DNA from: a virus
Lineage: Duplodnaviria; Caudoviricetes
Length of the DNA stretch: 54,619 nt
Reading direction: 5' to 3' (one strand)
IMG/VR virus record: IMGVR_UViG_3300042317_000583
Span: 1 to 54,619 of that record
In this document: in pieces, positions 15,035 through 52,508 of the stretch
Layout: every line of letters begins with the position of its first letter
Position numbering within the stretch: the first letter of the stretch is position 1
Program-made: the position numbers and the translations under genes
The notes under the pieces: generated by a model
Seen by the model: only the letters and a program-made list of their open reading frames with translations
Database searches by the model: none
Told to the model about the DNA's origin: nothing

Positions 15035-15052
15035 TGATTCGTACCCTAACAA

Positions 15053-15911: not shown

Positions 15912-15997
15912 TTTCGCGGCGACCGACGCGGCCGCCACATGCCACTAGTATACCGACATCGGAATACTCGTCAAGGGGAGAGCAGAAAAAATATTTC
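15912..15997 (-). promoter_or_regulatory. Repeated early promoter/operator/leader cassette, copy 4
   Basis: TTGACG (15969-15974), 16 bp, TATACT (15947-15952). Confidence 0.88.
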
Positions 15998-16473: not shown

Positions 16474-16498
16474 GCACCGATTGTAGCGGCTGCACGGA

Positions 16499-16723
16499 TC
16501 ACCCGGCAGACCGAGGGCGTCCAACTCGCTTTTTTCGGGATGCCACTTCGCGCTGATACTGCGCCGCGTCCTTCTCGCAGGCCAGCCGCTCGACCGCCCA
16601 CGCACGCCCGTTGATTTTGAATCCCGGCAGCGTGCCGTCGTTAAGTCGCCTGAGAACCCACACTTGCGTCACGTTCATGATCTTCGCAGCGTCCTGCACG
16701 CTGATCCACGCTCGTTTTTCCAT
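16499..16723 (-). CDS. Excisionase-like HTH_17 protein with a GRPR AT-hook, divergent from the integrase
   Basis: WISVQDAAKIMNVTQVWVLRRLNDGTLPGFKINGRAWAV; AGAGGA RBS. Confidence 0.8.
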   Translation of the reverse strand: MEKRAWISVQDAAKIMNVTQVWVLRRLNDGTLPGFKINGRAWAVERLACEKDAAQYQREVASRKKRVGRPRSAG

Positions 16724-16901: not shown

Positions 16902-17759
16902 ATGTTGCTCATCGACCTGTTCACGAACTACTACCGCCCGCTGCGTCTGCGGGGCAAGTCGCTCCAGACGTGCCGGTTGTACGGCTGCACAATCCGTACA
17001 TTCGGCAAATGGCTCCAGTACCCCGCTACCGTGGACGACTTGTCCGACCTCATGCTCTCCCGCTTTCTAGAGGAGCGAGCGGCGACCCGCAGCCCCTACA
17101 CGGCTGAGAAGGAACGCACTCAGCTTGTGTCGCTCGCACGGTTCGCACGGGATCGAGGGATTATCCCGATCATGCCGGAAGTTCCGCCCGCTCCGCTGCC
17201 CGAGCGAGTGCCGAGAGCGTTCACTCTGCCCGAGCTTCAAGGCATCATGCGCGCCGCTGCGGCGACTCGCGGAACGGTAGGACACGTCGCGGCTGGCGTC
17301 TGGTTCACCGCGTTGATCAGTGTTCTTTGGGAGACGGCGGAGCGTATCGGTGCGGTGCTAGAGTGCGTGCCGGGAGACTTCACAGCACCGCACCTCCTCG
17401 TCCGTGCCGAGGTGCGGAAGGGTGGGAAGCGCGACAAGGCATATCGGCTGTCCGCACGCACTGCCGCCTTGGTGCGTCAGGTCTGCGGCGAGCGGCGCAT
17501 CTTTGAGTGGCCGCAGGGCCGCACATACTTGTGGGCGAAGTACGCCGACATTGTCGCCCGTGCCGGGCTAGGGAAAGGCAGGCACCTGTCGTTTCACGCA
17601 CTGCGCCGCTCGGCAGCAAGTCACTACGCTAGCCTTGGCGGTGACGCCGTGGCGTTGCTAGACCACTCAAACCCGCGAATCACGCACCGCTGGTACCTCG
17701 ACCGCCGCATGACCGACCGAGGGCCGCAGCCGTGCGACTTGCTGCCAGACATTTCTTGA
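16902..17759 (+). CDS. int: Tyrosine recombinase/integrase
   Basis: Catalytic R (AERIG), K (RKGG), HALR, LDHS, WY. Confidence 0.88.
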   Translation: MLLIDLFTNYYRPLRLRGKSLQTCRLYGCTIRTFGKWLQYPATVDDLSDLMLSRFLEERAATRSPYTAEKERTQLVSLARFARDRGIIPIMPEVPPAPLPERVPRAFTLPELQGIMRAAAATRGTVGHVAAGVWFTALISVLWETAERIGAVLECVPGDFTAPHLLVRAEVRKGGKRDKAYRLSARTAALVRQVCGERRIFEWPQGRTYLWAKYADIVARAGLGKGRHLSFHALRRSAASHYASLGGDAVALLDHSNPRITHRWYLDRRMTDRGPQPCDLLPDIS

Positions 17760-18359: not shown

Positions 18360-18735
18360 CGTCCTGCTCCTTGTCGTGTTCTTCGCGGTACAGCAGGAGT
18401 GCCAACAGGCTGTAGCTGGCAAGGTCGAGCAGCGAGTCCTCGACGCCTTCGTGCCGGAGACGCCCCGTGCGGTTGAACGTCGCCAACCTCGTCACTTTGT
18501 CGGACAAGCGAACCATCGCGGCCTTCCACGCCGGGATGCCGACGAACGTGGCTCCGTTCCTGATGTTTGCCAGCGGGTCCGTCTCGCTGCCGTAGTCGGC
18601 ACTCTTAGACGAGTGAAGCTCCCGGAGCGTGTCGAGCAGGTCAAAGTACGCCCGGGATGACGGGTGTACCTTCCGCTCCGAGTGCTTCTTCGCCGACGAC
18701 GCCGTGATTGCCGCCCAGTTTTCTGCGATGGTCAT
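18334..18735 (-). CDS. DUF1599 / nucleotide-modification-associated (MazG-like) protein
   Basis: KSADYG..DPLAN, RLSDKVTRL, EGVEDSLLDLASY. Confidence 0.75.
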   Translation of the reverse strand: MTIAENWAAITASSAKKHSERKVHPSSRAYFDLLDTLRELHSSKSADYGSETDPLANIRNGATFVGIPAWKAAMVRLSDKVTRLATFNRTGRLRHEGVEDSLLDLASYSLLALLLYREEHDKEQDDEPSASDK

Positions 18736-19913
18736 GAGTCCCTCCTTGGTGATGCAACGTGCATGGCAATAAGTCCACCATCACGCGAGTAGCAGAACGT
18801 CTCCATCGCCTGTCTGGACCCGATAAATCCGCTCGCCGAGTGCCAGTCGTCCGGCGGGCAGATTGCCGGAGCCGTCCTTGTCACTACGCCGTCGAGCGTC
18901 TCTATCGGCCGGCTCCACTCCGCTGCCTGTGAGTGATAGTGTCCTGTGTGCCACTCGCGGTACGGGCACCTGCTCCACTCTGCCGCGGCCTCCAGAGCCA
19001 TCAGTTGCGGCAGTTTTCGCTTTGCACGATGTCCGTGCGCGAAGCCTAAGAGATTTCTCCCATATGAGAAATACTGCCTCGGGGTAAAGTCGTCCCGAAC
19101 GCTCACGCCCCGAGCCCCGTGAAATCGTTCCCGCATGATCCGCTGGAATGCCCACGTCAAAACCTCATCGTGGTTCCCGTTGACGACCACGACTTCCGTT
19201 GGCGTCTGCTCCGCTGACCGCTGCACAAGCCCCAAGAGCGTGTCGCAGCCGACCGCGATCATCTTCTGGAGCCGGCCGTCCCTCTCCAGCGGCGTGCCGC
19301 TTGTCGTCGTGCCGCTTGGCGTGTCGTAATGAAATAGGTCGCCTAGAAATGCGATGACCCGCTTCTCCGGCTTGTAGGCATCGCCGGAGGCCAGAAGCTC
19401 ATTGCCGGCCTCAGTCACCAATCTCTCGGCGATTCCTAAGTCGTAGTCATCGCCGCCGGTCGTCTGCGCCCATGCGTATTTGCCGAAATGAGTGTCGGCG
19501 ACCACGACAAGCTGCATCACGCCCGTCTGAGCCGCCTTGACGCGGCGTGGCGGGCTCTTTTGCTTCTTGCGAAGCCCAGCACCTTCGATCATTGCTGCCA
19601 CCACGTCGCGTGTGGCGAGCCCTCCGCGGGGGCGGAGGCGGACAAACACCCGATGAAGCTCGGTCGTTCCGCCACTGCCGTCCCCGCACTCCCATTTCGT
19701 AGCCTCGCTGGCTGCAACCTCGTACCGGGTCAGGTCGGCCTCAATGTGCCGCAGTAAATCCTCGACGGTCCTGATGCGGGTGCTTGTCGAGCGGGCCTCA
19801 AGCACGTCCCCCTCTTGCCGCTTCGTCACCTGTTCCGCGTCCGCCGCCGGCTTCGGAGCCGGGAGCTTCTCGGCGACGGCTGCTATGGCTGCTTTGATTT
19901 TGCGTTTAGCCAC
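18732..19913 (-). CDS. Calcineurin-like metallophosphoesterase
   Basis: DTHFG, GDLFH, GNHD, HGH, GHYH. Confidence 0.85.
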   Translation of the reverse strand: MAKRKIKAAIAAVAEKLPAPKPAADAEQVTKRQEGDVLEARSTSTRIRTVEDLLRHIEADLTRYEVAASEATKWECGDGSGGTTELHRVFVRLRPRGGLATRDVVAAMIEGAGLRKKQKSPPRRVKAAQTGVMQLVVVADTHFGKYAWAQTTGGDDYDLGIAERLVTEAGNELLASGDAYKPEKRVIAFLGDLFHYDTPSGTTTSGTPLERDGRLQKMIAVGCDTLLGLVQRSAEQTPTEVVVVNGNHDEVLTWAFQRIMRERFHGARGVSVRDDFTPRQYFSYGRNLLGFAHGHRAKRKLPQLMALEAAAEWSRCPYREWHTGHYHSQAAEWSRPIETLDGVVTRTAPAICPPDDWHSASGFIGSRQAMETFCYSRDGGLIAMHVASPRRDS

Positions 19914-20164
19914 GCAATGACCCCTTGGATGCCAGACGTTTTCCACCCACGCTCGGCGGCTGTCTCCATGACGGCCGCGGCGACGGCACGCTTCTGCGCC
20001 CCTCGCATAATTCCGCTGCCAGCGTGATACGCGTCACGCACTGCCGAAAGCTCGTCCTTGGCTATCTGCGGGAGCGAGTCAAACCACGTCCGATACCCGG
20101 GGCCGCGGTTCTTAATCTTTCCCGCGACTTCTTCCAGAAGGCTTTTTTGCTTTCTTTGTTTCAT
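19883..20164 (-). CDS. Hypothetical protein
   Basis: Operon continuity. Confidence 0.6.
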   Translation of the reverse strand: MKQRKQKSLLEEVAGKIKNRGPGYRTWFDSLPQIAKDELSAVRDAYHAGSGIMRGAQKRAVAAAVMETAAERGWKTSGIQGVIAWLNAKSKQP

Positions 20165-40545: not shown

Positions 40546-41221
40546 TCTTGTGCAGCCACTCCTCATGCAGCGAGATGACCGAGCGATAGCCTTGCACGGC
40601 TTTCCTTCTCTCCGCGGCGGCAAGCGACCGCAGGTCGTATGACCTACGAGCCACGGTAACGCTTGAATCCGGGTACGCCGGGTACGTGACTGGGCCCACG
40701 TCGAGCAGGTCCGAGACGCGGGTGATCGTCCTGATGTGCCGGCCCCGCTCGTCCACCGTCCAAGACTCGCCGTCTCTTGCCACGATAAACGCGAATGACG
40801 ACCCGCGAACGTCGCCTCGGCGGATGCTTTCAACGATTCCGGCGTGCGCGGCCGGCGGCTTAACCTCGTACCGGAGCCCCACCTCGTCCACCGTCATTCG
40901 GAGCGTGTCCGGGAGGCGACCAAGGACGTAGTTGGGGTCGTGGTTAAACAGGGCTCGCGTATCCAGCGGGTTCTTCCGGCCGCGCCGCTCCGTCACAAGC
41001 CCGAAGGCCTCCGGTGCAATTCGCTCGGTAAACTCTCCGAGGTCAAGGCTGTCCGTGTCGAAGCGTGCCGCGTATCCGACGATCCACTCCTCCGGTTCCC
41101 CGTCAGAGCCGTCCTCGTTCTTGGCGGAACGGGTTTCCACGGTCAGCAGGGGCACAGCGGCTTCCTGCTCAATGGTCACGAAACGCCGCTCCAGCATGGG
41201 GTCGTCACTAATCTTTGGCAC
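40532..41221 (-). CDS. HK97-family prohead protease
   Basis: GYAARF, FTERIAP.AF, LFNHD, GSSFAF, VTYPAY. Confidence 0.92.
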   Translation of the reverse strand: MPKISDDPMLERRFVTIEQEAAVPLLTVETRSAKNEDGSDGEPEEWIVGYAARFDTDSLDLGEFTERIAPEAFGLVTERRGRKNPLDTRALFNHDPNYVLGRLPDTLRMTVDEVGLRYEVKPPAAHAGIVESIRRGDVRGSSFAFIVARDGESWTVDERGRHIRTITRVSDLLDVGPVTYPAYPDSSVTVARRSYDLRSLAAAERRKAVQGYRSVISLHEEWLHKNGKR

Positions 41222-42719
41222 GCCTACTCCTCCTTTTTCTTGGTTCCTGCGGTGCTAATGCTTCCGGTTGCGGAGCGGGCTCCGCCTCGGCGGTCGGCTG
41301 AATTGCTTCCGGCAACGAGGGAGCCGGGGTCGGCACCCCGGCGACGATGGTCGCCACCTGCTCGGGAGTCAGGCTGGGAAACGCCGCGGAGATCACAGTG
41401 GACGCTGCGTCCGGGGCAAGCAGCCCGCTGGCGACGGCACTCAGCACTTGCAGGATTGGTGCCACTTGCGTGTCCGGCTGCTGCTCTGCGGGCGGCTCCG
41501 CGGCAGCGACTTCCTCTTGCTTGTCGCTTGCCATTGCCTCAACGGTCGTCATGTTTAGCGGGAAGTAATGCGAGTCCCCGCCTTCGATGGGGTTCAGGTT
41601 TTCCCTGCTCCGCACCTCGTTGATCGACATAATCCCGCGGTCAATCATCGCCGTGAAGTACGCCGACCGGGCGGCTGCGTCCCCCCGCATGAGGTGCGAC
41701 ACGTCAAAATCGGCGAAGTAAAGCTCCGGCTGCGCAATCAAGTCCCGGGTGAACGCCTTCTCAAACCGGCGGAGCCACGGCAGGATCGAATACTGCACGA
41801 AATCAATGCTCTGCTGCTCAATGTTGCTGAACGTCGAGCGGGACAGGTCTTGAATCATGTGAGGCGGGCACCTGTAGAGCCTGCAGATTTCTTCGACCTG
41901 AAATCGCCTAGCCTCAAGGAATTGGGACTCCGTATTGCTCGTCCCGAGTTCGTGGGCCTTGAGCCCACCCGTCAGCACGGCTGTCTTGGATGACTTGTCC
42001 GGGCCGCGGTGCAGCCGCTCCCAGTTCTCCCGCAGTCGCTCCGCAGCCTCCACCGCCATGCTGGAGTCCGTCTCCAGCACGACCCCGGGGCGGGCTCCAT
42101 TCCCGAAATACCTTGCTCCGTGCAGTTCGCACGCCCGGGCCAGACCAATCGCCTCTTTCCCAAGCTGCACCGGGATGCTGCCGGACACGCCATCGCTGCT
42201 CATCCAGCTAACGCGAAAAATCTGATCTTGGTTGTAGACGGTCTTGCCCCCGTCCGGCTCGGTGTAAGTAAACCGCAGCCGTCCGTTTTCAATCTTCTCC
42301 ACCTTCATCCTCGACGGGTGAAGCGGGAGAAGTTCCTTGGTAACACCGGCCGCCCCCTCGACGATTTCCGAGTAGCACGCCCCGTACAGACCCAAATGGA
42401 TCATGCACGTCTCCAGCCACTCAAAGCTCGTCTGCCATGCGTTCGGGGCGGACGACAGGAGCGTGTCGAGCCAGCCCGGAGATCGCTCGCGGCCGCCGTT
42501 GGGGAGCCGGCGATAGACGTGCAGCGGCAGGCTGGCGACGGTTTCGGCTAGAACCCTGACACACGCCAGCACGGCCGTTGACTGCAGTGCGTTTTCGCTG
42601 GTGATTCGGACGCCGGACGACGCACCCCGAGCAAAACCGTAGTCGTCGTCCAGCAGGGAGCCGAAGAACCGGAGCTCCGGCGACACGTCGTAGACTCTGC
42701 TTTCGGTTTCCATGCTCAT
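41208..42719 (-). CDS. HK97-family portal protein
   Basis: AVLACV..LAE.VASLP, FGNGARP, QFLEAR, FSNIEQQ, NEVR..ENL.P. Confidence 0.94.
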   Translation of the reverse strand: MSMETESRVYDVSPELRFFGSLLDDDYGFARGASSGVRITSENALQSTAVLACVRVLAETVASLPLHVYRRLPNGGRERSPGWLDTLLSSAPNAWQTSFEWLETCMIHLGLYGACYSEIVEGAAGVTKELLPLHPSRMKVEKIENGRLRFTYTEPDGGKTVYNQDQIFRVSWMSSDGVSGSIPVQLGKEAIGLARACELHGARYFGNGARPGVVLETDSSMAVEAAERLRENWERLHRGPDKSSKTAVLTGGLKAHELGTSNTESQFLEARRFQVEEICRLYRCPPHMIQDLSRSTFSNIEQQSIDFVQYSILPWLRRFEKAFTRDLIAQPELYFADFDVSHLMRGDAAARSAYFTAMIDRGIMSINEVRSRENLNPIEGGDSHYFPLNMTTVEAMASDKQEEVAAAEPPAEQQPDTQVAPILQVLSAVASGLLAPDAASTVISAAFPSLTPEQVATIVAGVPTPAPSLPEAIQPTAEAEPAPQPEALAPQEPRKRRSRRAKD

Positions 42720-44317
42720 AGCAGGATGATTTGCGGTTCTGGTTCTGCCGGTTTCTGCTGCTCTGCGCTCCACACGCCGAGGGCTTGGACGAGTGCAATG
42801 ATGCCGTCTACTCTCTCGCTACCGTTCTGCCTCGGCTTCAGCGGCCGAATCATTCCCTCCGCGTTCTGCCGCACACTCGCGTTGTTCGCCTGCCAGTTGA
42901 GGACCGGGTTGCCGTTGTGCCGCAGCCGTCCGTTTGCCAGCATGTTCTCTAGCATCCGGCTGGGGGCGTTCATGCCGGCAAAGCCCTGCGGCCACCCGAC
43001 AACGTCCAATCCCATCCCTTGCAATTGGTTGGACAGATGCGTTGCGTTGTACCGGTCAATCGCAATGCGACGGACCTGATACTGCTGCGCGAACTGCTCA
43101 ACGTCCTTCCGAATAAAATCGTAGTCGGTCACATTGCCGCCGGTGGCGACGATGATCCCTTCACGGACATATTGTGAGTACGGGAACCTATCTCGTCGCT
43201 CTCGGTCCACCAGCATGTCGCCCGGGATGTAGAACTTCGCCAGCACGTCCACTGTCCCGTCCGCCGCCGGGAACACCGCGGCCAACGCGCTGGTGTCTTG
43301 TGACCATGCCAAGTCGAGCCCCAGCCAGCACGGCTTGCCGTCGAGCGGCTCCGGGGGCGGCTTGTTGCACGAATCCCACACCTCCATCTTGATCCATCGC
43401 GTGTCCTGTGCCGTCCACTGATTGAGTCGGTACCGGCGAAACGAGTTTTCCTTTGTGGTCGAGAGCTGCGCCTCGCGGAAGTCCGCCGCGAAGTCGTCCG
43501 GGCTTATCGTCGTCCCCCATGACGGGTTGGCCTTCGCCCACGTCTCTGGCTTTGTCCAGTCGTCGTCATCGTCTGCCCCGCCGATAAAAGCGTAAAAGGT
43601 CGGGTCCACGGTCCAGTCGGACAGCACCCGCTTGGCGTAGACGTGCTGCTCGTAGCAGATGGAGTTCCTGTCGTACCCCGCCGTTGTGATGGAAAGCAGG
43701 AGCGGCTGGGTCCGGCTTGCGCCGCCGTACCGGAGCGAGTCCCACAGCGAACGCGACCGCTGCGCGTGAAGCTCGTCAAAGAGCAGCCCGTGGATATTCA
43801 AACCTTCCGCCCGGAACGAGTCGCCAGCCAGCACCTTGTAGAACGACGCCTTCCTCAAGCACGACACCGTCCTGCGGCTCTCCACCACTTCCAGTGAGCG
43901 GGACAGGGACGGGGAGGCCCGGACCATGCTCGCCGCCTCGCGGAACACGATGGACGCCTGCTCGCGGTCTACGCCGCAGCCATACACCTCGGCCCCGGGC
44001 TCTTGGTCGGCGACAAGGAGATACAGGCCGATGCCGGCAAGGAGCGTGCTTTTTCCGTTCTTCTTTGGGGTCGTTATGTACCCCACGCGATACCGGCGTG
44101 TGTTGTCGGCGACCCGCAGCCAGCCAAAAAGCTCCTCAATGACCTCCGTCTTTTGCCACTGGAGGAGCGAGAACCTTTGGCCCGACCAGCGACCCTTGGA
44201 GTGAACGAGGTACTTTTCAATAAAGTCCACCGCATGATCTGCGTGGGTCTTTGAAAAGTAGTAATCAATTCCCTCGTCACGCGCCTCTTGTAGCGATAAA
44301 CGTCTCAAACGGGTCAT
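42716..44317 (-). CDS. terL: Terminase large subunit
   Basis: PKKNGKS, DELH, ITTAG, W.KANP, GLDL, DG..AL. Confidence 0.95.
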   Translation of the reverse strand: MTRLRRLSLQEARDEGIDYYFSKTHADHAVDFIEKYLVHSKGRWSGQRFSLLQWQKTEVIEELFGWLRVADNTRRYRVGYITTPKKNGKSTLLAGIGLYLLVADQEPGAEVYGCGVDREQASIVFREAASMVRASPSLSRSLEVVESRRTVSCLRKASFYKVLAGDSFRAEGLNIHGLLFDELHAQRSRSLWDSLRYGGASRTQPLLLSITTAGYDRNSICYEQHVYAKRVLSDWTVDPTFYAFIGGADDDDDWTKPETWAKANPSWGTTISPDDFAADFREAQLSTTKENSFRRYRLNQWTAQDTRWIKMEVWDSCNKPPPEPLDGKPCWLGLDLAWSQDTSALAAVFPAADGTVDVLAKFYIPGDMLVDRERRDRFPYSQYVREGIIVATGGNVTDYDFIRKDVEQFAQQYQVRRIAIDRYNATHLSNQLQGMGLDVVGWPQGFAGMNAPSRMLENMLANGRLRHNGNPVLNWQANNASVRQNAEGMIRPLKPRQNGSERVDGIIALVQALGVWSAEQQKPAEPEPQIILL

Positions 44318-44765
44318 CTTCGGCCCCGCGGTGAATCTGTACCTGCGACCGGCTGCTGGGCGTCAGCCCGAACTGCTGCTCTATCCTGAGCAGGCTTGCA
44401 GCCAGCTTCATCATCTGAGTGGCGAACGGGCTCACCTGCATGTACGGTGCTTCGCCCTCGGCTTTCGGCTTAAACCGCATCACGTCTCCGTACTTGTTCA
44501 CCATCTCGACGTTCCGCTTCCACAGCGCGAACTCAATGCAGTACCGATGCCACGTCCCCCTGTCGGCCTCGGTAAACACCCCCATGGCCTGCAGCTTCGG
44601 CACTGTGTCCATCCATTTGTCGAGGGCCACGCCCTCAAGGTCATCCGGCGGAGACAGGGACGCCGGCAGCGGCTTAGGCTCATTTGCACTGAACCCTTCC
44701 TTGCTCGGGTCGCCCCGGACGTACCGCACGATAGACGGCTGTTTGGCCGGGCCTCGCTGCCCCAT
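44277..44765 (-). CDS. terS: Terminase small subunit (P27 family)
   Basis: RGP..P, FGLTPSSR. Confidence 0.88.
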   Translation of the reverse strand: MGQRGPAKQPSIVRYVRGDPSKEGFSANEPKPLPASLSPPDDLEGVALDKWMDTVPKLQAMGVFTEADRGTWHRYCIEFALWKRNVEMVNKYGDVMRFKPKAEGEAPYMQVSPFATQMMKLAASLLRIEQQFGLTPSSRSQVQIHRGAEDDPFETFIATRGA

Positions 44766-44768
44766 GGA

Positions 44769-45344
44769 TTACTCCTCGTCTCTCAACGCTTCGCGGATGG
44801 CTTCGTTCCGGTCAACGTAGAACTCACCGCTGCACGACGGGCACCGGACGTGCGAGTACCTTTCCTGAGTGCTTTCGCTTCTGTCGGAGTACGCCGAGTC
44901 CATCTGATCCTTTGCCCGGTCGATCTCCTGCTGCTGCGGCGAATGAAAGTCCGACGCACCAGCCGTGTCGGCGAGCAGCCGCTTCACGTCAAGCATCGGG
45001 AAGAACTCGGCCATGTCACCGACCTCGCGGAGCTCTGCCACAAGGTCCGCCATGTGCCACTCGGCGAACTCCGCCGTTTTGTTGTCAGCGATCCGGTACT
45101 CCCGTGCCTTTGCCTCCGTCAGCGTGACCGTGACGGTCGGGACGGACTCCATGCCGAGAAGCTGCGCCGCCTTGAGCCGCGTATGCCCCGAGATCACGAC
45201 GCCGTCGTGGTCAATCAGGATAGGTGAGTTAAACCCGTAGTCCCGGATGGAGCGGGCGACGGCACCCACGGCTTCGTCATTGTTTCGCGGGTTCCGCCAG
45301 TACGGCTTGATGCTAGCCACGCTTGTCATTCGTGCTTCGATCAC
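44769..45344 (-). CDS. ParB/Srx N-terminal domain protein with a C-terminal CxxC
   Basis: PYWRNPR.N, GFNSPI, GHTRL.AA, RIADN; CPSC. Confidence 0.85.
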   Translation of the reverse strand: MIEARMTSVASIKPYWRNPRNNDEAVGAVARSIRDYGFNSPILIDHDGVVISGHTRLKAAQLLGMESVPTVTVTLTEAKAREYRIADNKTAEFAEWHMADLVAELREVGDMAEFFPMLDVKRLLADTAGASDFHSPQQQEIDRAKDQMDSAYSDRSESTQERYSHVRCPSCSGEFYVDRNEAIREALRDEE

Positions 45345-45856
45345 AGTGAGTTAGCCTCCACCTTAAACGAGTGCGAGCAGTGCGGGCAGTCAAGGCACAC
45401 CTCAAGCGGCCCAGCCGGTTCCTCCGGCTCGTCTTCGACCGTCACGCCGTCCATTGCATCGTCAAAGGACTCCGCGGTCATAAGTCCGGCGAGCTCTCCC
45501 TCCTTGAAGAACACCTGCATGACCCCGACGTTTGCCATCTCCTCAAGCTCTTTGACGAGCGATTCGTGGTTCCACGACGCGATGCTCCCCGCCGCGTTGT
45601 CCGCAATCCGGTACGCCTTGGCTTTCTGAGGAGGCAGGTCAATGACGACGACCGGCACCTCTGGCATTTCAAGCTGCCGCGCCGCCCGGAGCCGTGTGTG
45701 CCCAGCGACGACGACGAAATCGGAGTCCACCACGATGGGCGAGTTGAATCCGTACCTCTTGATCGACGCCTTCACGGCGTCAACCGCTGCGTCATTCCTT
45801 CTTGGATTCCGCCAGTACGGCTTCACCTTCTCCACCGGAACGCTGACGATCTTCAT
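45341..45856 (-). CDS. ParB/Srx N-terminal domain protein with a C-terminal CxxC
   Basis: PYWRNPRRN, GFNSPI, GHTRL, RIADN; CPHC. Confidence 0.85.
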   Translation of the reverse strand: MKIVSVPVEKVKPYWRNPRRNDAAVDAVKASIKRYGFNSPIVVDSDFVVVAGHTRLRAARQLEMPEVPVVVIDLPPQKAKAYRIADNAAGSIASWNHESLVKELEEMANVGVMQVFFKEGELAGLMTAESFDDAMDGVTVEDEPEEPAGPLEVCLDCPHCSHSFKVEANSL

Positions 45857-46490
45857 ACGCCTTCCTTATCTCCAGTTGCTTCTTGGCTTCCCACGCCCTG
45901 CGATACTCAACGTCCTCAAACAGCTTGCTGAATCCGGTGACGTGCTTCAGGCGGATGAGCTCGTCGGCCTCCAGCCCTAGCTCCGCACAGATGGCCTCGT
46001 CGCCCCACCCGTTGTCCAGCATGGAGAACACCATGCTTGCCATGCCCGACACGCTGTGCTTGCCCCGGGCACGGTTGTGCCGGACGGTGCTTGCCATCCG
46101 GTCGTTGATCGACTTGTCAATGACGACGACGGGGAGGAGCCCGCCGTTTCTCTCGCGAATGTCATCGTGCAGCCTCATCGTGGTGTACCGATGAAAGCCG
46201 TCCACGATGACGTATGAGTCTGAGTCCTCGTCGTACACAGTGACCACCGGCTGCGTGTACCCATCATGCAGGATGCTCACGTACAGCAGCCTCATTTCGT
46301 TCTTGGCAACGCTATTTGGGTTGTAGTCATTTGCCTTGACCTTCTCAATCGGAACCCAGCGAACGTAATCGACGGGTTGCGACTTCAAGCCGCTCAACTC
46401 GGCGTGAATCCACTTCCGCAGATTGTCCACGAACGCTGCCTTGTCGTCGGCTGCGTCAAACTCAGCCTTGATTGCTTGCCGCCCGCTCAC
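45792..46490 (-). CDS. IbrB-like ParB-family protein
   Basis: ANDYNPNSVA, GYTQPVV, VDGFHR, RMASTVRHNRARGKH. Confidence 0.85.
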   Translation of the reverse strand: MSGRQAIKAEFDAADDKAAFVDNLRKWIHAELSGLKSQPVDYVRWVPIEKVKANDYNPNSVAKNEMRLLYVSILHDGYTQPVVTVYDEDSDSYVIVDGFHRYTTMRLHDDIRERNGGLLPVVVIDKSINDRMASTVRHNRARGKHSVSGMASMVFSMLDNGWGDEAICAELGLEADELIRLKHVTGFSKLFEDVEYRRAWEAKKQLEIRKAYEDRQRSGGEGEAVLAESKKE

Positions 46491-47595
46491 GCTTCCTCCT
46501 TTGCCATGCCCGCTTGTATTTGAGGTTCTGTGGTGCCGTCTCAAAGTTCTTGAGCTTGATGTGCTCCCAGTCGTTCGTCAGGATCGACGCGATGTGCAGC
46601 CGGTAGATGGCGTCCCCCATCTCCGAATACATCTCGTCGTGGCGGGCGAATCGCTTCTTGAATCCTTCTTTCCACTCGTCGTTCCCAATCAGCTTGTCGA
46701 GCAGGAAGTCTCGGTACTCCCTCCAGCCGGAGAACATGTACGGCAGGCCGCCTCCGAAGTAATCGGCCGCGCCGAGCTTGCCCGCCATGTCGATGCCGGC
46801 GATCCTCTGTGTCAATTTCTGGTACGTCTCGCCCTCAATTTCCTGAAGGTAGAACAGCGAGTGAACCGCGGTTTCGTGGTGCACGTTGCTGACCCGCATC
46901 TTCTGCACCGGGATGCCGTACTGGTGCATGGCGTCGTACAGCTTGTTGTACGACCAGCCGTTGTTGTGAATGGCCTTCCACACGTCCATGTACGACCAGT
47001 CGTAGATCGGGTACATGGTGTAATGGTTCCGCTTCTTGTCGAGGATCGTCCCCCACGTCTCGCCGCAGAACGCCTCGCTCTGCGTCAGCCCCATGTACCG
47101 ACCCGGGCTCTCCTCCGCCCGCACACCTGCGATGTAGCAGGTCGGCGTGTCTGGGTATTCCTTCTTGATGATGGCGGAGAACATTTTGGAGAACCGGTCG
47201 GTGCCGTAGACGTTCTCATGCACCGAGTACGTCTCCCGGGGACGCATCCACCGCTCCTCATCCTCCGGGTTCCAGCACTGGAGCCAATGCTCGACGGTGC
47301 TTGTGGCGTTGAACAGCCTGATCGGCATTTGGTACCACTTCGGCTCCACCTCCGGGTTCTCCATGATCTCCCGGATGGTGTCGATCGTTGACTGCCACTC
47401 GGCTTCCTGATCCACGAACAGGCACTTGAGCGGGAGCCGGCCCTTCTCCCGGGCGACGGCGAGTGCAAGGTTGTAGACGACGGTGCTATCCTTGCCGCCG
47501 CTCACGCCGACGATGATGTTCGGGAACTTGTCAAACAGCCAGCGAACTCGGTCCATGGCTGCTTCGTGCACGGTCTTGGGAAGGTAGATTTTCAC
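46462..47595 (-). CDS. PAPS-reductase-family (IbrA/DUF3440-like) protein
   Basis: SGGKDS PP-loop, DQEAE, GVRAEES..R, YPIYDW..DVW, YN.LYD, MRVS. Confidence 0.85.
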   Translation of the reverse strand: MKIYLPKTVHEAAMDRVRWLFDKFPNIIVGVSGGKDSTVVYNLALAVAREKGRLPLKCLFVDQEAEWQSTIDTIREIMENPEVEPKWYQMPIRLFNATSTVEHWLQCWNPEDEERWMRPRETYSVHENVYGTDRFSKMFSAIIKKEYPDTPTCYIAGVRAEESPGRYMGLTQSEAFCGETWGTILDKKRNHYTMYPIYDWSYMDVWKAIHNNGWSYNKLYDAMHQYGIPVQKMRVSNVHHETAVHSLFYLQEIEGETYQKLTQRIAGIDMAGKLGAADYFGGGLPYMFSGWREYRDFLLDKLIGNDEWKEGFKKRFARHDEMYSEMGDAIYRLHIASILTNDWEHIKLKNFETAPQNLKYKRAWQRRKRERAASNQG

Positions 47596-48161
47596 TTGCC
47601 CTCCAGCCAGTTGCCGATGGCACCGATGCACTCGGCGTTGTAGTCACTGACGACAAAACGCTTCCCTGCATCGGCGAACACCTTGGCCGAGCGGCCGTAC
47701 CCGCAGCAGAAATCACCGATGCACCCATAGCTCTGTGACAGCGATGCAAGGATGTCCCATGCGGGGCGACCCGGCTCCCACGGCTGAATATCGCCGTACA
47801 CGATAGCCATGGCCGGAGCCCCATTGAGCTTTGTGGGCAGCACGAACCGGGGTTGGGGGAGGAGCGGGACTGCTCGCTTGCCAGCGACGATCACGACCGG
47901 AACGGAGAGCCCGCGGATGATCTCTGCAACTCGGGCCATGAATGTTGAGTAAGTCCGGCCGTCCTCAACATTTGCCCGTTTGTCGAACTCGGCGAAGCCG
48001 TCCTTCCACGGCAGGTCCGTGTAGAACACGTCGCAGCCATCAAACTCGGGCGGCAGACGGGACGACGACATGAGGTCGTGAGCCATGGCGACCGACTGCC
48101 CAGCCGAGACATACTGCCTCGGCGTGTGCTTCAGTGCAGCGTGCAGTGCTGAGTGGTACAT
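47592..48161 (-). CDS. Minimal methyltransferase-like protein with a degenerate DLPW motif
   Basis: YTDLPW and DFCCGYG in beta-class order. Confidence 0.65.
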   Translation of the reverse strand: MYHSALHAALKHTPRQYVSAGQSVAMAHDLMSSSRLPPEFDGCDVFYTDLPWKDGFAEFDKRANVEDGRTYSTFMARVAEIIRGLSVPVVIVAGKRAVPLLPQPRFVLPTKLNGAPAMAIVYGDIQPWEPGRPAWDILASLSQSYGCIGDFCCGYGRSAKVFADAGKRFVVSDYNAECIGAIGNWLEGK

Positions 48162-48775
48162 CACCCTGCCGACTTCTTTAGGAAGGCGATTGTCTTTGAC
48201 AGCCGCTTCTCGTTGAACTCGTTGCCCCGGAAACGCATGCCGGCAGCGACCGCCGCCCGTGCCGTGTATCCCATGCCGCAGCATGGATCGCAGCAGAGCC
48301 CGCCCTCGACCGCTACGCTCTTGACGGCCTGCACCACCATCGGGAGGCCAATGGCCCCGGAGAGCGAAACTCTCGCGACGTAGGATGGCGATGTGCCGCC
48401 GTAGACGACTGAGCTCTCCAGAATCTTGCTGCCGGAGCGGTACTTGACCCGTTCAATCTTGATGTTGTGCAGGACGGCACTGAGGGCGGAGGCCAGTTCG
48501 TCCTCCCACTTCACCCCTGTCTCCACGAACGCGAACCCGTCCACGTACCTGCCGATCAGGGAGACGAACCGGGCCTGAAGCTCCGCGTACGTCAGCGGGC
48601 GGAAGTCTCGTCCGGTGTGCCGCTTGTTGACGGTCACCCAGTACCGCAGGTTGCCCGTGCCCCACGGCGGGTCGGAGTAGAGAACCTTGATCTTCTCGCC
48701 GGACAGGAGCGAATCAACGACAGGATCATCAACGCTTGCGCACGTCACTGCGTGCGGGCCGATGTGCTGTATCAC
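48161..48775 (-). CDS. Minimal N6/N4-type DNA methyltransferase-like protein
   Basis: YSDPPW and DPCCGMG..A.AA...G..F.GNE in beta-class order. Confidence 0.75.
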   Translation of the reverse strand: MIQHIGPHAVTCASVDDPVVDSLLSGEKIKVLYSDPPWGTGNLRYWVTVNKRHTGRDFRPLTYAELQARFVSLIGRYVDGFAFVETGVKWEDELASALSAVLHNIKIERVKYRSGSKILESSVVYGGTSPSYVARVSLSGAIGLPMVVQAVKSVAVEGGLCCDPCCGMGYTARAAVAAGMRFRGNEFNEKRLSKTIAFLKKSAG

Positions 48776-49061
48776 CAGAATCCTCCTTGATCTCAGCCCG
48801 GTTGATCAGAATTGTCTGATCCAGCGGGCTTCCCATCGTCCAGTACGTGAATCCATCCACGTCCAGATATTTGTATTCCCTGCCGCCGAACTTCTTGGCG
48901 TATCCGCGACGGCGGATTTCCATGACGAAGTTCTCAAACTGTTTTTCGTCCGACGCACGACGCCGCAGCGCATACCAGTGCGGCGTCTTGGGCATCGTCT
49001 TTGCAAATGTCCATGTATTAAGAGCGATAAACTCGCGTATTTCTTGGTCAGTCACGCGCAT
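48729..49061 (-). CDS. Conserved hypothetical protein
   Basis: WTFAKTMP..PHWY, YWTMG....TILINR. Confidence 0.65.
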   Translation of the reverse strand: MRVTDQEIREFIALNTWTFAKTMPKTPHWYALRRRASDEKQFENFVMEIRRRGYAKKFGGREYKYLDVDGFTYWTMGSPLDQTILINRAEIKEDSGDTAHRPARSDVRKR

Positions 49062-49243
49062 GCACCACAAGCGGGAGGAGTGTTTGTCGCACCGTAAACA
49101 CCGTACAGCGAATCTTACGGAGCGTTTTCCGAGAGGAAAGACCCCCCCACCAAAACCTCCGGCGGCGCGAGCATGAGGTAAGCACGGGGTTTACTCCTGA
49201 GTTGAGGTCCGCGATAGCGATGCCCCCACCCCCTCACCGTTTG

Positions 49244-49555
49244 TTATCTATCGCTTCTTGTTTCCTCCTCGGTCTTCCTGCCATGGCACGCTGAACATAA
49301 GCACTGACCATTCAATAGGTCGTACCTGCTGCCGCCTCGCGAGACAGGCACGATGTGGTCGGCGTGTGCTTCGCCCTTGCCCCCGCACACTCGCTTGCAG
49401 ACCCGGCACTCCCAGCAGTCTCTTGCCAGCACAGCCTTCCTCCACGCCCGGTGCCGCGAGTCGCAGTACCCTCTTGCCGCAGCGTTGGGTCGACGTTCGA
49501 CGCGGCCTGCCTTGGGGGCTTGTGCCGGCCGGTGCATGGGAACCTTGTAGGGCAT
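49244..49555 (-). CDS. Packaging-associated HNH endonuclease
   Basis: CRVC, ADHIVP..RGG, NGQCLC..CH..KT. Confidence 0.9.
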   Translation of the reverse strand: MPYKVPMHRPAQAPKAGRVERRPNAAARGYCDSRHRAWRKAVLARDCWECRVCKRVCGGKGEAHADHIVPVSRGGSRYDLLNGQCLCSACHGRKTEEETRSDR

Positions 49556-49866
49556 CAGTTCGTTGCCGTGTCCTTGGGCCTCACCATCAGTACCGACTTG
49601 ATTTCCCGCTGCCCGTTCGCCAGCTCTTGCATCGTCTCGGCCTGCTGTTCCTGTGTGTGCCCTATTTCCTTGAGCGTCTCCTGCGTTGTCTCCAGAAACT
49701 TGGTATGTGCTGTCACGACCGGGACGACGACCGTCGAGTGCACCGACACTGCCACGTCCCTCGCCATCCACAGGACTGCGACAAGGATCAGCACCGGTAC
49801 CCCGAACCGCTCGGCGAGCCGCAGGAAAAAGTCCAGTGTCCCGACCTGCTTCTCTGAGTCTGTCAT
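49555..49866 (-). CDS. Holin-like membrane protein
   Basis: One TM segment (FGVPVLILVAVLW) plus a coiled coil. Confidence 0.45.
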   Translation of the reverse strand: MTDSEKQVGTLDFFLRLAERFGVPVLILVAVLWMARDVAVSVHSTVVVPVVTAHTKFLETTQETLKEIGHTQEQQAETMQELANGQREIKSVLMVRPKDTATN

Positions 49867-50255
49867 GTAGCCTCCCACCCGCACTGCCGGCGAAGCTCAC
49901 CCACGTCGAGCCGCCCGGAGAACCACCGCGACAGTAGGTACCTGACAATGGCCTCGACCGCCCACGCCAGCACTACCGACATAAACACGAACCCGTAGTT
50001 GTTGTCCTTCTGCATGCCGTGGTCCCGCAGGTACCCTGACATGACCTGAGCCTCCAGCAGCTTCTTGCGATCCTGCACGCCCTGCGACTTGGCGGAGAGT
50101 GCCGAGAGCTCCGCATCGGGGAAATGAGCACACGCTCGCATGAGCAGTTCCGCACACCGCTTCTTCCCCAGCACTGCCCGTCGGCAGAGCGACGGACGCA
50201 ACGCCTTCCAGCAGTCGTCAATGAGTTCGTCCAGCGTCACTTGGTTTTCTGGCAT
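49863..50255 (-). CDS. Hypothetical protein with a C-terminal hydrophobic helix
   Basis: YGFVFMSVVLAWAV. Confidence 0.55.
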   Translation of the reverse strand: MPENQVTLDELIDDCWKALRPSLCRRAVLGKKRCAELLMRACAHFPDAELSALSAKSQGVQDRKKLLEAQVMSGYLRDHGMQKDNNYGFVFMSVVLAWAVEAIVRYLLSRWFSGRLDVGELRRQCGWEAT

Positions 50256-50527
50256 GATCCGTCCTTGCACTTGCATTTGCACGTCGGCGGGCATGGGCAC
50301 GGCACCCACGCGATTCCGTCCCCGCTCCGCACCTTCCCGTTGACGCACTTCTGGCAGCACTTATCCGTGGCGGGAGGCCCGGGGCTGAACGTTCTCCGGG
50401 CACGCACCGTCTCGTACGCCGTGCGTGCGGCAATCTCTGCCGTCACCTCTGGAGAGTTAGCCGGTTGAACGCGGCACCCGTCAAACCACATCAGCGAGAG
50501 GGCCGTCACCAGCGTCGCCGTTTTCAT
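50237..50527 (-). CDS. Cys-rich secreted or lipoprotein-like protein
   Basis: Signal-like N-terminus, DGC; CCQKC..G....GDG....CPC...CKC. Confidence 0.6.
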   Translation of the reverse strand: MKTATLVTALSLMWFDGCRVQPANSPEVTAEIAARTAYETVRARRTFSPGPPATDKCCQKCVNGKVRSGDGIAWVPCPCPPTCKCKCKDGSCQKTK

Positions 50528-51441
50528 AGCCAGCCCCCGGTCCAGTTTGGCAGCTGCGTTGGAGAGAATCCGGTGTACCCCGCAAGTGCGTAGCTATCGT
50601 CGCCAGCGACCAGACGGTCAATCACGTCGGCATCGACCCAGCCTCCGCTCCGCTGAAACTGCACCGGCAGTGCCGTGTCAACCGTGCCCTCGTAGCAGTC
50701 GCCCCATGAGTTCTCTACGAACGCCCCGGGGCGGTCGCCGAACCGCACGCCGCAGATCATTTGGCAATGAGCCCATGACCCGGACTGACGCAGCCAGCCG
50801 TCGCGCAGGTTCATGTTGAAGCCGAGCCCGCTGCACACTGCCACCGGGTACCCATTGCTGATGGCCTTCGCCACGTCCTTAAAATCTTGGACGAGCGTGA
50901 CTTCGCCAACCTTGTGTCGAGCGGCAAACGGCTCCAGCGCGTCGGGCACACCGTTGCGTCCCCAGTCCCGTTCCAGCGACCCGGGGGAGCGGTCAAACAC
51001 CTTGCCGTCGTAACTCTGCCCGCAGTGCAGCGTGCCGTACTTCGTCACTGCCTTGGCGGCCGCGGCTCCGTAGCTGCCGTCCCCGCCGTTGTTTGCTTTC
51101 TGGCCCCGAGCCTCAACGCGGCTAAACCCGTATGTGCCTGCTTCAAGCACCCGGCCGCCGAACGACTCGCGTTCTCCTCGCAGCAAAATGTCACATGCCG
51201 CCAGTACGTCGCATGAAAGACTCCAGCCCCAGCCAACGCAGGAGCCGATCTCCTGCCTGCCTCGTTGCCAGTGCGGGTTCACTTTCAGCAGGTAATGCCC
51301 GAGGAACACGTCGTGCTGCGCCACCTCAAGGGCTGGCCCAGCGTCCGCCATCGTCGGTTTCGCCAGCGACGAGACGAACTTGCTTTGTGCTTTCGGGTCG
51401 GATTCGTACCCGAACAATGGCGTGAACTCTGCCATGTTCAC
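50524..51441 (-). CDS. Papain-like (C1-type) cysteine peptidase
   Basis: QEIGSCVGW, WAHC, ENSWG. Confidence 0.8.
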   Translation of the reverse strand: MNMAEFTPLFGYESDPKAQSKFVSSLAKPTMADAGPALEVAQHDVFLGHYLLKVNPHWQRGRQEIGSCVGWGWSLSCDVLAACDILLRGERESFGGRVLEAGTYGFSRVEARGQKANNGGDGSYGAAAAKAVTKYGTLHCGQSYDGKVFDRSPGSLERDWGRNGVPDALEPFAARHKVGEVTLVQDFKDVAKAISNGYPVAVCSGLGFNMNLRDGWLRQSGSWAHCQMICGVRFGDRPGAFVENSWGDCYEGTVDTALPVQFQRSGGWVDADVIDRLVAGDDSYALAGYTGFSPTQLPNWTGGWL

Positions 51442-51932
51442 CCCTTGTTAATGCCGGCCCATGCCAGCGACTTCGCGGCCTTGATGTACGCCTTGCGGAG
51501 TTCGGGCGTCACCGCCACGTCATCCTTGCCCAGCACTGCCGGGTCGGCCAGAAAAGCCTCGGTCGCTTCCCGCAGGCCGACGTACTTGCCCGGGGCATTG
51601 CCCGCGATGCGGTTCCACGCGATGTCAAAGCAGATGACGGTAAATGCCCGCAGTGATTTCGTGTCGGTCAGGATCACGTCATTCCCGTACTGCCCAACCT
51701 CGTCCCCGGCAACGACGCCTGCCGCCTTTTCCCATACCTCCGCCCACAAAGCCCGGTCCACGGCCGACGCTTGCCGCAGTGCCGCGGCGACCGGGGCCAG
51801 CTTCCCCGTGCTGTCCGCCGCCGGCGAGTCATGCTCAGGCGAGGGGGCAGGGGAGTGCTGCTTGTCAATTCCGTAAATGGCAAACCAGACGAGAACCACG
51901 GCGGCACCGATTCGCAGGATGTGGGCAGTCAT
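51438..51932 (-). CDS. Membrane-anchored hypothetical protein
   Basis: N-terminal TM, Pro-rich linker. Confidence 0.6.
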   Translation of the reverse strand: MTAHILRIGAAVVLVWFAIYGIDKQHSPAPSPEHDSPAADSTGKLAPVAAALRQASAVDRALWAEVWEKAAGVVAGDEVGQYGNDVILTDTKSLRAFTVICFDIAWNRIAGNAPGKYVGLREATEAFLADPAVLGKDDVAVTPELRKAYIKAAKSLAWAGINKG

Positions 51933-51933
51933 T

Positions 51934-52239
51934 TCAGGCCTTCGGCTGCTTGAGCATTTGGTCAATGAGTTGCTGACAGAGCTTGACGGCCTCCGCCTTA
52001 CCCTGTGCCTGCAGCTTGGCCGCAAGCTCCAGCACGGTGTGCATGTCTGCTTCGCCGGGGGGCGAGATGTCCGGGATCAGGTTCTCCACCTGCTCGGCGA
52101 GTGCCGGGAACGCCTTCTTGACTTCAGCCTCTACAAACGACATTACCCACGACAGGAGCCAACGCCCCACGATTCGCAGCGTAGGTGAGACGACGAGCGC
52201 GACGGCCACGCCTACCATTGCCATTTGAACGAGCGTCAT
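51934..52239 (-). CDS. Membrane protein
   Basis: Hydrophobic N-terminus. Confidence 0.6.
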   Translation of the reverse strand: MTLVQMAMVGVAVALVVSPTLRIVGRWLLSWVMSFVEAEVKKAFPALAEQVENLIPDISPPGEADMHTVLELAAKLQAQGKAEAVKLCQQLIDQMLKQPKA

Positions 52240-52508
52240 TGAATTGCCTCTGCCTTCTGAACGGCCCAGCGGATAAATTGCTCGCCCTGCGGCGTACGCA
52301 ACAGTTCGGTGACAAGTCGCACGGCCTCATCGTCCAGCCCGGTCTTGCTTTTGCTGGCCAGCCACTCGGCCCCGTCGGCGATCAGCATGGCCCGCTTGTA
52401 CGTGTCCTGCTCGCCCAGCACCCGGCGGCCGAGCGTGACGAGCGGCCAATACTCATGCACAAGCCTCACCTGCTCGACGATGTTCGCCTGCGATTCTTGC
52501 ATCCCCAT
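52236..52508 (-). CDS. Hypothetical protein
   Basis: WLASKSKT.LDD.AV motif; ATGA overlap. Confidence 0.6.
   Translation of the reverse strand: MGMQESQANIVEQVRLVHEYWPLVTLGRRVLGEQDTYKRAMLIADGAEWLASKSKTGLDDEAVRLVTELLRTPQGEQFIRWAVQKAEAIQ

Follow-up and report, generated by a model that had tools for sequence, protein, structure and literature searches.

A stretch of 54,619 nucleotides from a virus of the Caudoviricetes (Duplodnaviria), positions 1 to 54,619 of IMG/VR record IMGVR_UViG_3300042317_000583, is referred to here as the window. Between an HNH endonuclease open reading frame (ORF) and the terminase gene terS it contains a cluster of seven genes (44769-49061), all on the minus strand and with gene-to-gene overlaps throughout. 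An initial annotation of the window had reported this cluster, and its coordinates, gene list and placement are correct. It had also proposed that the genes form an undescribed system. In agreement with this, no functional study of IbrA/IbrB or of the module, and no biochemical function for the pair, was found in the literature searched, which did not extend to subscription journals and supplements. Here we assign the cluster to a large and mosaic family of phage modules with an IbrA/IbrB pair at their core, and discuss the possibility that such modules act on DNA.

The seven genes are, in order of transcription:

48729-49061, minus strand: p113, 110 aa from an ATG start; first gene of the cluster
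48161-48775, minus strand: MT1, 204 aa; minimal beta-class amino-methyltransferase-like protein
47592-48161, minus strand: MT2, 189 aa from an ATG that overlaps the MT1 stop; distant paralogue of MT1
46462-47595, minus strand: IbrA-like (YbdN-like), 377 aa from a GTGA overlap; PAPS_reduct and DUF3440 domains
45792-46544, minus strand: IbrB-like (YbdM-like), 250 aa; ParB/Srx fold
45341-45856, minus strand: ParBa, 171 aa; ParB N-terminal domain (ParB-N), C-terminal CPHC
44769-45344, minus strand: ParBb, 191 aa; ParB-N, C-terminal CPSC

The earlier gene identifications hold as well.

The IbrA and IbrB core pair

The IbrA-like protein contains a PAPS_reduct domain (PF01507, residues 39-234; 1.1e-15, 58.5 bits with a cut-off of 22.5) followed by DUF3440 (PF11922, residues 239-355; 2.3e-9, 37.7 bits with a cut-off of 25), each above its gathering cut-off, and matches phrog_2302 at 1.6e-78. 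An IbrB-type gene is adjacent and overlaps the 3' end of the IbrA gene by 83 nt. Both the domain order and the neighbour are those of the IbrA family. The product of the neighbour matches phrog_2159 (1.3e-74) and reaches 22.1 bits with ParB_N, under the cut-off of 26.3. In a 40-sequence alignment it has 53 invariant columns, including RHNRARGKH and DGFHR (D115-R119), the DGxHR-type motif that goes with the ParB/Srx domain in the IbrB/YbdM family.

The same core, a PAPS_reduct and DUF3440 protein beside a ParB-like protein, is present in the IbrA/IbrB island of E. coli ECOR-9 and in YbdN/YbdM of E. coli K-12, the latter described with these domains in the accessible portion of PMC9068703. The likeness to the E. 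coli pairs is one of domains; here the pair lies inside a seven-gene phage module that the terminase genes directly follow.

Among 39 aligned IbrA-like sequences the PP-loop SGGKDS never varies, nor do other catalytic-looking residues. The AlphaFold2 model of IbrA (predicted local distance difference test, pLDDT, 88.5) is matched best by the PAPS (3'-phosphoadenosine 5'-phosphosulfate) domain of flavin adenine dinucleotide (FAD) synthase (8ron; Z 15.9, root-mean-square deviation 3.2, 179 residues aligned) and second by CysD (1zun; Z 15.4, 2.6 Å, 170 aligned). Reductases of PAPS or of adenosine 5'-phosphosulfate (APS) reach Z 14-15. The helical DUF3440 C-domain is uncovered by any fold match of the whole model, and a sequence search of the PDB with IbrA gave no match. 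The closest solved folds to the N-domain are therefore the CysD-CysN ATP sulfurylase and the flavin mononucleotide (FMN) adenylyltransferase/FAD synthase, enzymes that transfer an adenylyl group from ATP. The partner of CysD is an NTPase, and IbrB may play a similar part for IbrA. Identity to these enzymes is 14-20% only, IbrA adds DUF3440, and its partner and genomic context differ.

Viral genes of this kind, including the DUF3440 clade, have been treated as cysH, an auxiliary metabolic gene that would boost assimilatory sulfate reduction (10.1101/2021.01.05.425418, in its accessible part). The Pfam PAPS_reduct match supports the fold that this assignment implies. The NCBIfam models for CysH and PAPS reductase, however, score between 17.8 and 25.0 bits where the cut-offs are 154 to 254: NF002537 gives 24.9 (154), TIGR02057 25.0 (254.2), TIGR00434 23.9 (165.1) and TIGR02055 17.8 (235.3). 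CysH has a conserved catalytic cysteine near the C-terminus. In the 39 aligned IbrA-like sequences C107 is the sole near-invariant cysteine, the C-terminal half has no conserved cysteine, and the loop is of the canonical ATP type. The obligatory pairing with a ParB/Srx protein and the DNA-type partners are likewise foreign to sulfate assimilation. The cysH reading fails its defining tests at the level of sequence and is barely credible.

The available accounts of DndB/DndC, SspD and BrxP describe a ParB-superfamily protein that acts on DNA together with an ATP pyrophosphatase of the PP-loop, PAPS-reductase-like kind. IbrA is weakly homologous to the DndC, BrxP and SspD models (2.8e-7 to 1.3e-4). 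As a member of these families it was rejected: TIGR03183 gives 22.5 bits (cut-off 290.4) and the PADLOC models for DndC, BrxP and SspD give 27.9, 24.7 and 19.8 bits, all partial. A Dnd-type cysteine dyad is described in the accessible part of PMC10853773; neither such a dyad nor Fe-S cysteines are conserved in the 39 aligned IbrA-like sequences. No match to a desulfurase, DndD, DndE or SspB/C occurs among the seven proteins or the 117 scanned ORFs of the variable slot described below, where desulfurase, DndD and DndE were not sought with dedicated hidden Markov models (HMMs). The partners in Dnd and Ssp are sulfur enzymes, whereas the accessory genes of the module encode transferases. Because the cysteine dyad and the sulfur partners are lacking and the scores fall far below the cut-offs, the module is not a phosphorothioation system of the Dnd/Ssp type.

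The tRNA-acting PP-loop enzymes TilS, TtuA, NcsA, MnmA and ThiI also match the IbrA model, at Z 6-12. Together with the class I methyltransferases of related modules, a class that commonly comprises RNA methyltransferases, they would suit a modification of host or phage tRNA or rRNA, which could favour late translation or evade anticodon nucleases. The RNA enzymes nonetheless score below the CysD, FMN adenylyltransferase and PAPS-reductase group (Z 14-16), no RNA-binding domain was found, and IbrA is without the Fe-S or persulfide cysteines used in thiolation. The SNF2 and ParB partners point instead to double-stranded DNA (dsDNA), and RNA is a very unlikely substrate.

ParB-like proteins and minimal methyltransferases

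ParBa and ParBb are tandem paralogues that are 42% identical. Both pass the ParB_N cut-off of 26.3 (36.0 bits, 7.4e-9, and 28.4 bits, 1.7e-6, respectively) and both match phrog_620 (9.5e-46 and 2.1e-41). Across 48 ParB-N sequences a lone CPxC at the C-terminus is conserved to at least 90%. Related modules have a single ParB-N protein, to which ParBb is the closer of the two by tblastn identity. A role as the partition ParB of a ParABS system was rejected: TIGR00180 gives only 29.9 and 30.4 bits for ParBa and ParBb (cut-off 58.45), the proteins are short and end in CPxC, and no ParA-like protein is present among the seven cluster genes.

A second likeness is to the phage fusions of ParB with N6/N4 methyltransferases. 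The N-terminal (ParB) part of PADLOC MTase_II model PDLC03229 matches ParBa at 9.1e-23 and also matches ParBb, and phrog_498, a family of such fusions, matches ParBa and ParBb at 2e-35 and 7e-33; MT1 matches the methyltransferase superfamily. In phages, fusions of the ParB fold to N6N4 methyltransferases and to Methyltransf_23 are frequent, and proteins of this kind bind ATP, CTP or GTP, according to a preprint on ParB-CTPase folds (10.1101/2025.10.10.680097) in which the words IbrB, YbdM and PAPS do not occur. The window differs in having separate genes, methyltransferases of about 190-205 aa and CPxC-ended ParB-N proteins, all tied to IbrA/IbrB. Immediately upstream of one IbrAB module lies a full ParB_N-N6_N4_Mtase fusion (L009:265-1650; PF01555 1.3e-39), so that fused and split ParB/methyltransferase forms coexist.

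The MT1 profile finds DpnA in the PDB at 4.1e-10, mainly through the last 60 residues, and also CcrM, MboIIA and RsrI. MT1 matches PHROG DNA-methyltransferase families at 2.4e-6 and reaches 17.9 bits with Pfam N6_N4_Mtase (cut-off 26.7); a homologue (L017:3993-4586) reaches 36.3 bits. Its invariant residues are D35-P-P(-W), then D163-x-C-x-G167-x-G169, plus GxE. MT2 has no match to the Pfam model or the other HMM libraries, and nothing meaningful in a PDB sequence search. It is homologous to MT1 (hhalign 99.2%, E 1.7e-19; BLASTP 23% identity, E 3e-5). In both proteins motif IV is N-terminal to motif I, which is the beta-class order. Motif IV is relaxed in the MT2 family, Y-x-[DE]-[PLI]-[PS]-[WFY]; the window copy has DLPW, with GDFCCGYG as motif I. 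At 204 and 189 aa the two proteins would seem to have no room for a conventional target-recognition domain. By their sequences MT1 and MT2 appear to belong to the DNA amino-methyltransferase superfamily, and they occur almost only in IbrAB modules.

The p113 family

The first gene of the cluster encodes a protein with the motifs WTFAKTM...PH.Y, YWTMG and INR. It has no match in four HMM libraries (Pfam, PHROG, NCBIfam and PADLOC). Its AlphaFold2 model is confident (pLDDT 85.9, predicted template modelling score 0.77), and no solved fold counterpart was found, the best Foldseek E value being 0.086 and the best VIA Z score 4.4 over 48,161 chains. The best Atlas feature score is 0.76. A tblastn search of 50,697 GenBank phage records gave no match. 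A word-index search had returned 13 relatives, which implied that p113 is rare; this was overturned by an exhaustive profile search, which returned 3524 cluster representatives at E<=1e-3, of which 2175 also pass E<=1e-10.

The p113 domain is often fused N-terminally to class I S-adenosylmethionine (SAM, AdoMet) methyltransferases. The recurrence of this fusion suggests that p113 physically works with the tailoring enzyme, perhaps as an adaptor or a substrate-binding domain. Other architectures (P0014, P0040, P0043 and P0053) include a 327-aa protein in which p113 occurs three times, a fusion of DUF433 to p113, and a C-terminal p113 that follows 170-185 unannotated residues. A predicted complex of IbrA, IbrB (40-250) and p113 (1-100), with p113 as the partner, scored 0.00 (mark 0.32) and is uninformative either way.

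Co-conservation of the module

IMG/VR was searched with p113, IbrA, MT1 and MT2 as anchors, and the loci were annotated with profiles built for the analysis. The stretches retained were the best 80 of 305 for p113, 80 of at least 579 for IbrA, 80 of 146 for MT1 and 66 for MT2. On bacterial and archaeal genome contigs, 80 of 123 IbrA-anchored stretches from many phyla were kept. These relatives were recovered with an IbrA alignment; a single IbrA protein query found none.

A lack of co-conservation had been named beforehand as what would refute the initial annotation, and the loci clearly show the opposite. IbrA is present at 74/80 p113-anchored, 71/80 MT1-anchored and 64/66 MT2-anchored viral loci. 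The p113 loci also contain IbrB (75/80), both IbrA and IbrB (72/80), and both together with ParB-N (69/80). Six p113 loci are without IbrA: one lies on a cut contig (L065), two have IbrB and ParB-N only (L023 and L025) and three have none of these (L026, L058 and L096). L023 and L025 (2859-4376), where the genes for p113, IbrB and ParB-N follow one another and about 9-10 kb contain no IbrA-like gene, are exceptions to the pairing of IbrA with IbrB. Seen from IbrA, viral loci contain IbrB in 77 of 80 cases, ParB-N in 64, p113 in 51, MT1 in 22 and MT2 in 8. IbrA or IbrB occurs at 73 of the 80 MT1 loci; of the seven with neither, four end within about 1.4 kb of MT1 at the contig end. The frequency of IbrA at MT1 and MT2 loci indicates that both families are dedicated parts of IbrAB modules and not free-standing orphan methylases.

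The co-conservation of the cluster across dozens of independent viral contigs is far beyond chance. A blastn search of phages with the whole cluster gave 10 records that each cover at most 11% of the query. Genome loci anchored on IbrA contain IbrB (71/80), MT1 (34/80), ParB-N (24/80) and p113 (19/80), and the closest relative among the 80 kept is from an Anaeromyxobacter metagenome-assembled genome (MAG; 63%). IbrA/IbrB genes are also found on contigs binned as archaeal (L193 and L233), from a Nanobdellati MAG with p113 and ParB-N and from a Heimdallarchaeota MAG.

The variable slot

The slot between p113 and IbrA was surveyed in 124 distinct modules. It comprises 91 ORFs and 27 C-terminal extensions of p113, and 117 sequences were scanned. 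Pfam tallies and clustering identify 35 class I SAM methyltransferases, mostly fused to p113. GNAT acyltransferases number 20 by Pfam and 30 in their cluster. A family of 183-217-aa proteins with a DxD-like motif has 26 members; its glycosyltransferase hints are weak (GT25 0.0088, R655 0.13), and the label GT-A-like is therefore tentative. The GT2 family has six members, and FkbM-type, NNMT/PNMT-like and D12 methyltransferases occur once each. AdoMet decarboxylase is found in 3/117 sequences (PF02675 1.9e-21; L148:2217-2582, L150:5708-6073, L152:5741-6106) and a saccharopine-dehydrogenase-like protein in 2/117 (L101:5112-6284, L103:5838-7001), a hint that some variants may use chemistry of the polyamine type.

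Of the 124 modules, 100 contain one or more accessory genes of transferase type. The combination of the window, p113 with MT1 and MT2, recurs in 7/124, and one more module adds a glycosyltransferase-like gene to it. The initial annotation had inferred a multi-step pathway that modifies the base or the backbone. The variable transferase slot fits a pathway of several, diversifying steps; the modified base or backbone, and the protection against restriction inferred with it, are putative.

Much of the slot could also serve a small-molecule or nucleotide pathway for counter-defence or host takeover, in which an IbrB kinase or NTPase and an IbrA adenylyltransferase make or destroy a nucleotide-linked metabolite that the transferases tailor. 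This is the main rival to a role on DNA. The class I, NNMT-like and FkbM-type methyltransferases, the GNATs, the AdoMet decarboxylase and the saccharopine-dehydrogenase-like proteins suit it, as do the nearest folds of IbrA (FAD synthase, FMN adenylyltransferase, CysD and the APS/PAPS reductases). The ParB/Srx folds include SerK and sulfiredoxin in the accessible part of 10.1101/2025.10.10.680097, and ParBa has a weak SerK match (0.0077). A metabolite would not account for MT1 and MT2, of the DNA amino-methyltransferase superfamily and dedicated to the modules, or for ParB-N proteins that resemble the ParB part of ParB-DNA-methyltransferase fusions. With the association of a dsDNA translocase described next, these make a small-molecule pathway unlikely.

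Two cassette architectures

Many p113-less genome loci contain a five-gene cassette of an SNF2/Rad54-like ATPase, a 240-340-aa protein, IbrA, IbrB and an MT1-like protein. It is found in L208-L227 and others (e.g. L216:4779-9322), in Clostridia, Bacteroidota, Akkermansia, candidate phyla and others. The SNF2-like protein matches 1z63 at 3.7e-17, and the copies of Flavobacterium phage FCV-1 and Streptococcus phage CHPC1062 are 31% identical (E 1e-51). Its partner of about 290 aa (X290) has no Pfam domain and 483 homologues, all annotated as hypothetical; by hhalign it has no relationship to p113 or MT2.

IbrAB cassettes have two mutually exclusive architectures, one with ParB-N and p113 and one with SNF2 and the ~290-aa protein. 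SNF2 lies near IbrA in 31/61 p113-less and 0/19 p113-bearing genome loci, and in 3/29 and 0/51 viral loci, respectively. We read this exclusion as a functional replacement, in which a dsDNA translocase takes the place of ParB-N/CPxC proteins and p113. It is the strongest single argument for DNA as the substrate. The DNA-directed role proposed in the initial annotation gains support from this replacement and from the superfamily of MT1 and MT2.

Position in the genome

The flanking features, all outside the module, are:

49244-49948, minus strand: HNH endonuclease ORF (PF01844 7.6e-10)
44277-44765, minus strand: terS (Terminase_4)
42716-44317, minus strand: terL, next after terS in transcription order

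The minus-strand order is a lysis-like region, the HNH ORF, the seven genes, terS, terL and the portal gene. A gap of 182 nt separates the HNH ORF from p113. The junctions down the cluster measure -47, -1, -4, -83, -65 and -4 nt, followed by +3 nt to terS, and no minus-strand terminator-like site was found in 41000-52500. Because the genes overlap or abut and no such site intervenes, the simplest reading is that the cluster heads the packaging operon.

This position is common. Among 69 p113-class modules with at least 3.5 kb downstream, 59 have an ORF of at least 380 aa that starts within 3.5 kb, at a median of 532 bp. These 59 ORFs match Terminase_6N (33), Terminase_3 (27), TerL_ATPase (5) and GpA (2), with multiple families possible for one ORF. 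The spread of the matches indicates that the terminases which follow the module come from several families unrelated to each other. The SNF2-IbrA-IbrB genes are flanked by terL and the portal gene in FCV-1, and by the lysin and cro-like genes in both CHPC1062 and Lactobacillus phage AQ113. A pre-terminase position fits expression at packaging time, and as evidence it is positional only. Of the coupling to packaging suggested earlier, the terminase genes that follow p113-type modules are in favour, by position only, and the pairs of CHPC1062 and AQ113, which lie elsewhere, are against.

A place at the head of the packaging operon would also suit regulators. IbrA/IbrB and the ParB-like proteins would then act by binding to phage DNA, either to turn on late or prophage genes or to label the site where packaging starts. 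The annotation IbrA/IbrB has been reused in phage records, and this explanation leans on the single recorded phenotype, the activation of eib genes in prophages, which Sandt et al. reportedly described in 2002, to judge from the title. Enzyme-type invariant residues are, however, strictly kept in IbrA across at least 39 divergent sequences, dedicated methyltransferase-like partners and a diversifying transferase slot are hard to explain by regulation, and an expression phenotype could itself stem from a DNA mark. We consider a purely regulatory function quite unlikely.

A culturable carrier

Microbacterium phage Hendrix has a whole module, which runs across the ends of its record; these ends are arbitrary. 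Circular permutation of the genome is described in the accessible part of PMC7302621, where the module genes are not discussed. The gene products are as follows:

gp155: glucosyltransferase
gp156: methyltransferase with an N-terminal p113-like domain
gp157: N-acyltransferase
gp158: IbrA-like
gp1: IbrB-like
gp2 and gp3: ParB-N type
gp4
gp5: TerL

The p113-like domain of gp156 was revealed by a query with a p113-methyltransferase fusion (P0045) and confirmed by the p113 profile (E 4e-8). Since Hendrix is culturable and has the full module, the function can be tested at the bench.

The annotations of gp155-157 also bring to mind the tailoring of virion or cell-surface glycans, in which the transferases would decorate capsid or tail proteins or sugars and IbrA/IbrB would make an activated donor. 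The module genes adjoin structural genes, and the slot contains GT2, GT-A-like, FkbM-type methyltransferase and GNAT members. The window, however, is without any glycosyltransferase, and glycosyltransferase-like genes occur in 35/124 modules only (28 fam2 and 7 GT2). The DNA-methyltransferase-like, ParB and SNF2 components would be left unexplained, and this role is highly improbable.

A model of the module

Our preferred reading is that the module is a DNA-directed modification machine, to which we assign a probability of about 0.45. Most likely it would place a covalent mark on the phage's own dsDNA late in infection. The reading is drawn from the superfamily of MT1 and MT2, the ParB part of the fusions, and SNF2 in p113-less cassettes. 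The invariant SGGKDS of IbrA, and nearest folds that transfer adenylyl groups or bind adenylyl sulfates, are also counted in its favour, as are the co-conservation of every gene family, the diversifying accessory slot and the tight overlap of the genes immediately ahead of terS/terL. DndB with DndC in phosphorothioation offers an analogous precedent in the available accounts, as does 7-deazaguanine modification, where the ParB-like ATPase DpdB is likewise described as assisting the DNA-altering enzyme DpdA. A transglycosylase was found neither in the seven proteins of the cluster nor in the 117 ORFs of the slot.

From the domain assignments and gene associations we infer the biochemical steps. 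First, IbrB and the ParB-N/CPxC proteins, probably with p113, would engage DNA in a manner dependent on nucleoside triphosphates (NTPs); the SNF2-like translocase would do this in the other cassette class. Second, IbrA, of the CysD/FMN-adenylyltransferase/PAPS-reductase clade, would use ATP to activate, by adenylation, a group on DNA or destined for it. Third, MT1 and MT2, which appear to be without a target-recognition domain, would finish or decorate the mark. In sister modules p113-fused class I methyltransferases, GNATs or GT-A-like glycosyltransferases would act at this step and create lineage-specific variants. The likely benefit would be escape from host restriction or other DNA-sensing defences.

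Several points weigh against this model. For no carrier of the module is there evidence, chemical or kinetic, that a nucleotide is modified. The solved relatives of the IbrA fold all act on small nucleotides (FMN, sulfate, APS and PAPS) and not on DNA. Many slot enzymes are of small-molecule type, among them the class I, NNMT/PNMT-like and FkbM-type methyltransferases and the GNATs, and the same holds for the AdoMet decarboxylase and saccharopine-dehydrogenase-like genes. The module has no Dnd/Ssp sulfur machinery. The IbrA/IbrB pair is also found in bacterial chromosomes without a visible partner, and E. coli ybdNM is under a LysR repressor (PMC9068703, accessible part). The MT2 of the window, with its degenerate motif IV, may be inactive. 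Proximity to terminase genes is limited to the p113 class.

A broader proposal is that IbrAB cassettes are a widespread, unrecognised class of DNA-modification systems that place a new, sulfur-free covalent mark on duplex DNA and tailor it interchangeably; this is possible but doubtful. The PP-loop enzyme, CysD/FMN-adenylyltransferase-like, would be driven and targeted by ParB/Srx NTPases or by an SNF2 translocase. The mark might, for example, arise from a backbone phosphate that is activated and subsequently undergoes substitution or alkylation. Tailoring by amino-methyltransferases without target-recognition domains, p113-fused class I methyltransferases, GNATs and GT-A glycosyltransferases would give lineage-specific hypermodifications. 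Base amination of the TilS type at the Watson-Crick positions of duplex DNA was set aside by reasoning only, because it would create mismatches.

Other genes of the window

The HNH ORF encodes 234 aa from the first TTG, with the HNH domain confined to residues 181-227. The true start may be the ATG at 49555, which gives a protein of about 103 aa. Just upstream of this shorter form, in another frame, lies a 109-aa ORF with a hydrophobic stretch (49555-49884).

An Amidoligase_2 gene (15053-15940, minus strand; PF12224 4e-18, phrog_2443) directly adjoins a class II glutamine amidotransferase-like gene (14339-15052, minus strand; GATase_6 6e-11). The phage thus encodes another pair of enzymes whose role is unknown. 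An integrase-like ORF (16902-17759, plus strand) scores 26.6 bits with Phage_integrase, slightly below the cut-off, and adjoins a gene for an HTH_17 protein (16066-16605, minus strand), which suggests a temperate phage.

Replication and repair genes of the window include two helicases (1335-2987 and 6302-7855), a primase (3126-4985), an ATP-dependent DNA ligase (10906-11823), an exonuclease (18732-19946) and a DUF932 protein (8050-9021). The 20 ORFs scanned, which cover part of the window, include neither a thymidylate-synthase-like gene nor one for a base hydroxymethylase.

Conclusions

The p113 protein defines a large, apparently undescribed domain family. Its fold is predicted with confidence, and no solved relative of it was found. 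If the module marks DNA, it would represent new chemistry among the anti-restriction strategies of phages and would provide new enzymes for DNA labelling.

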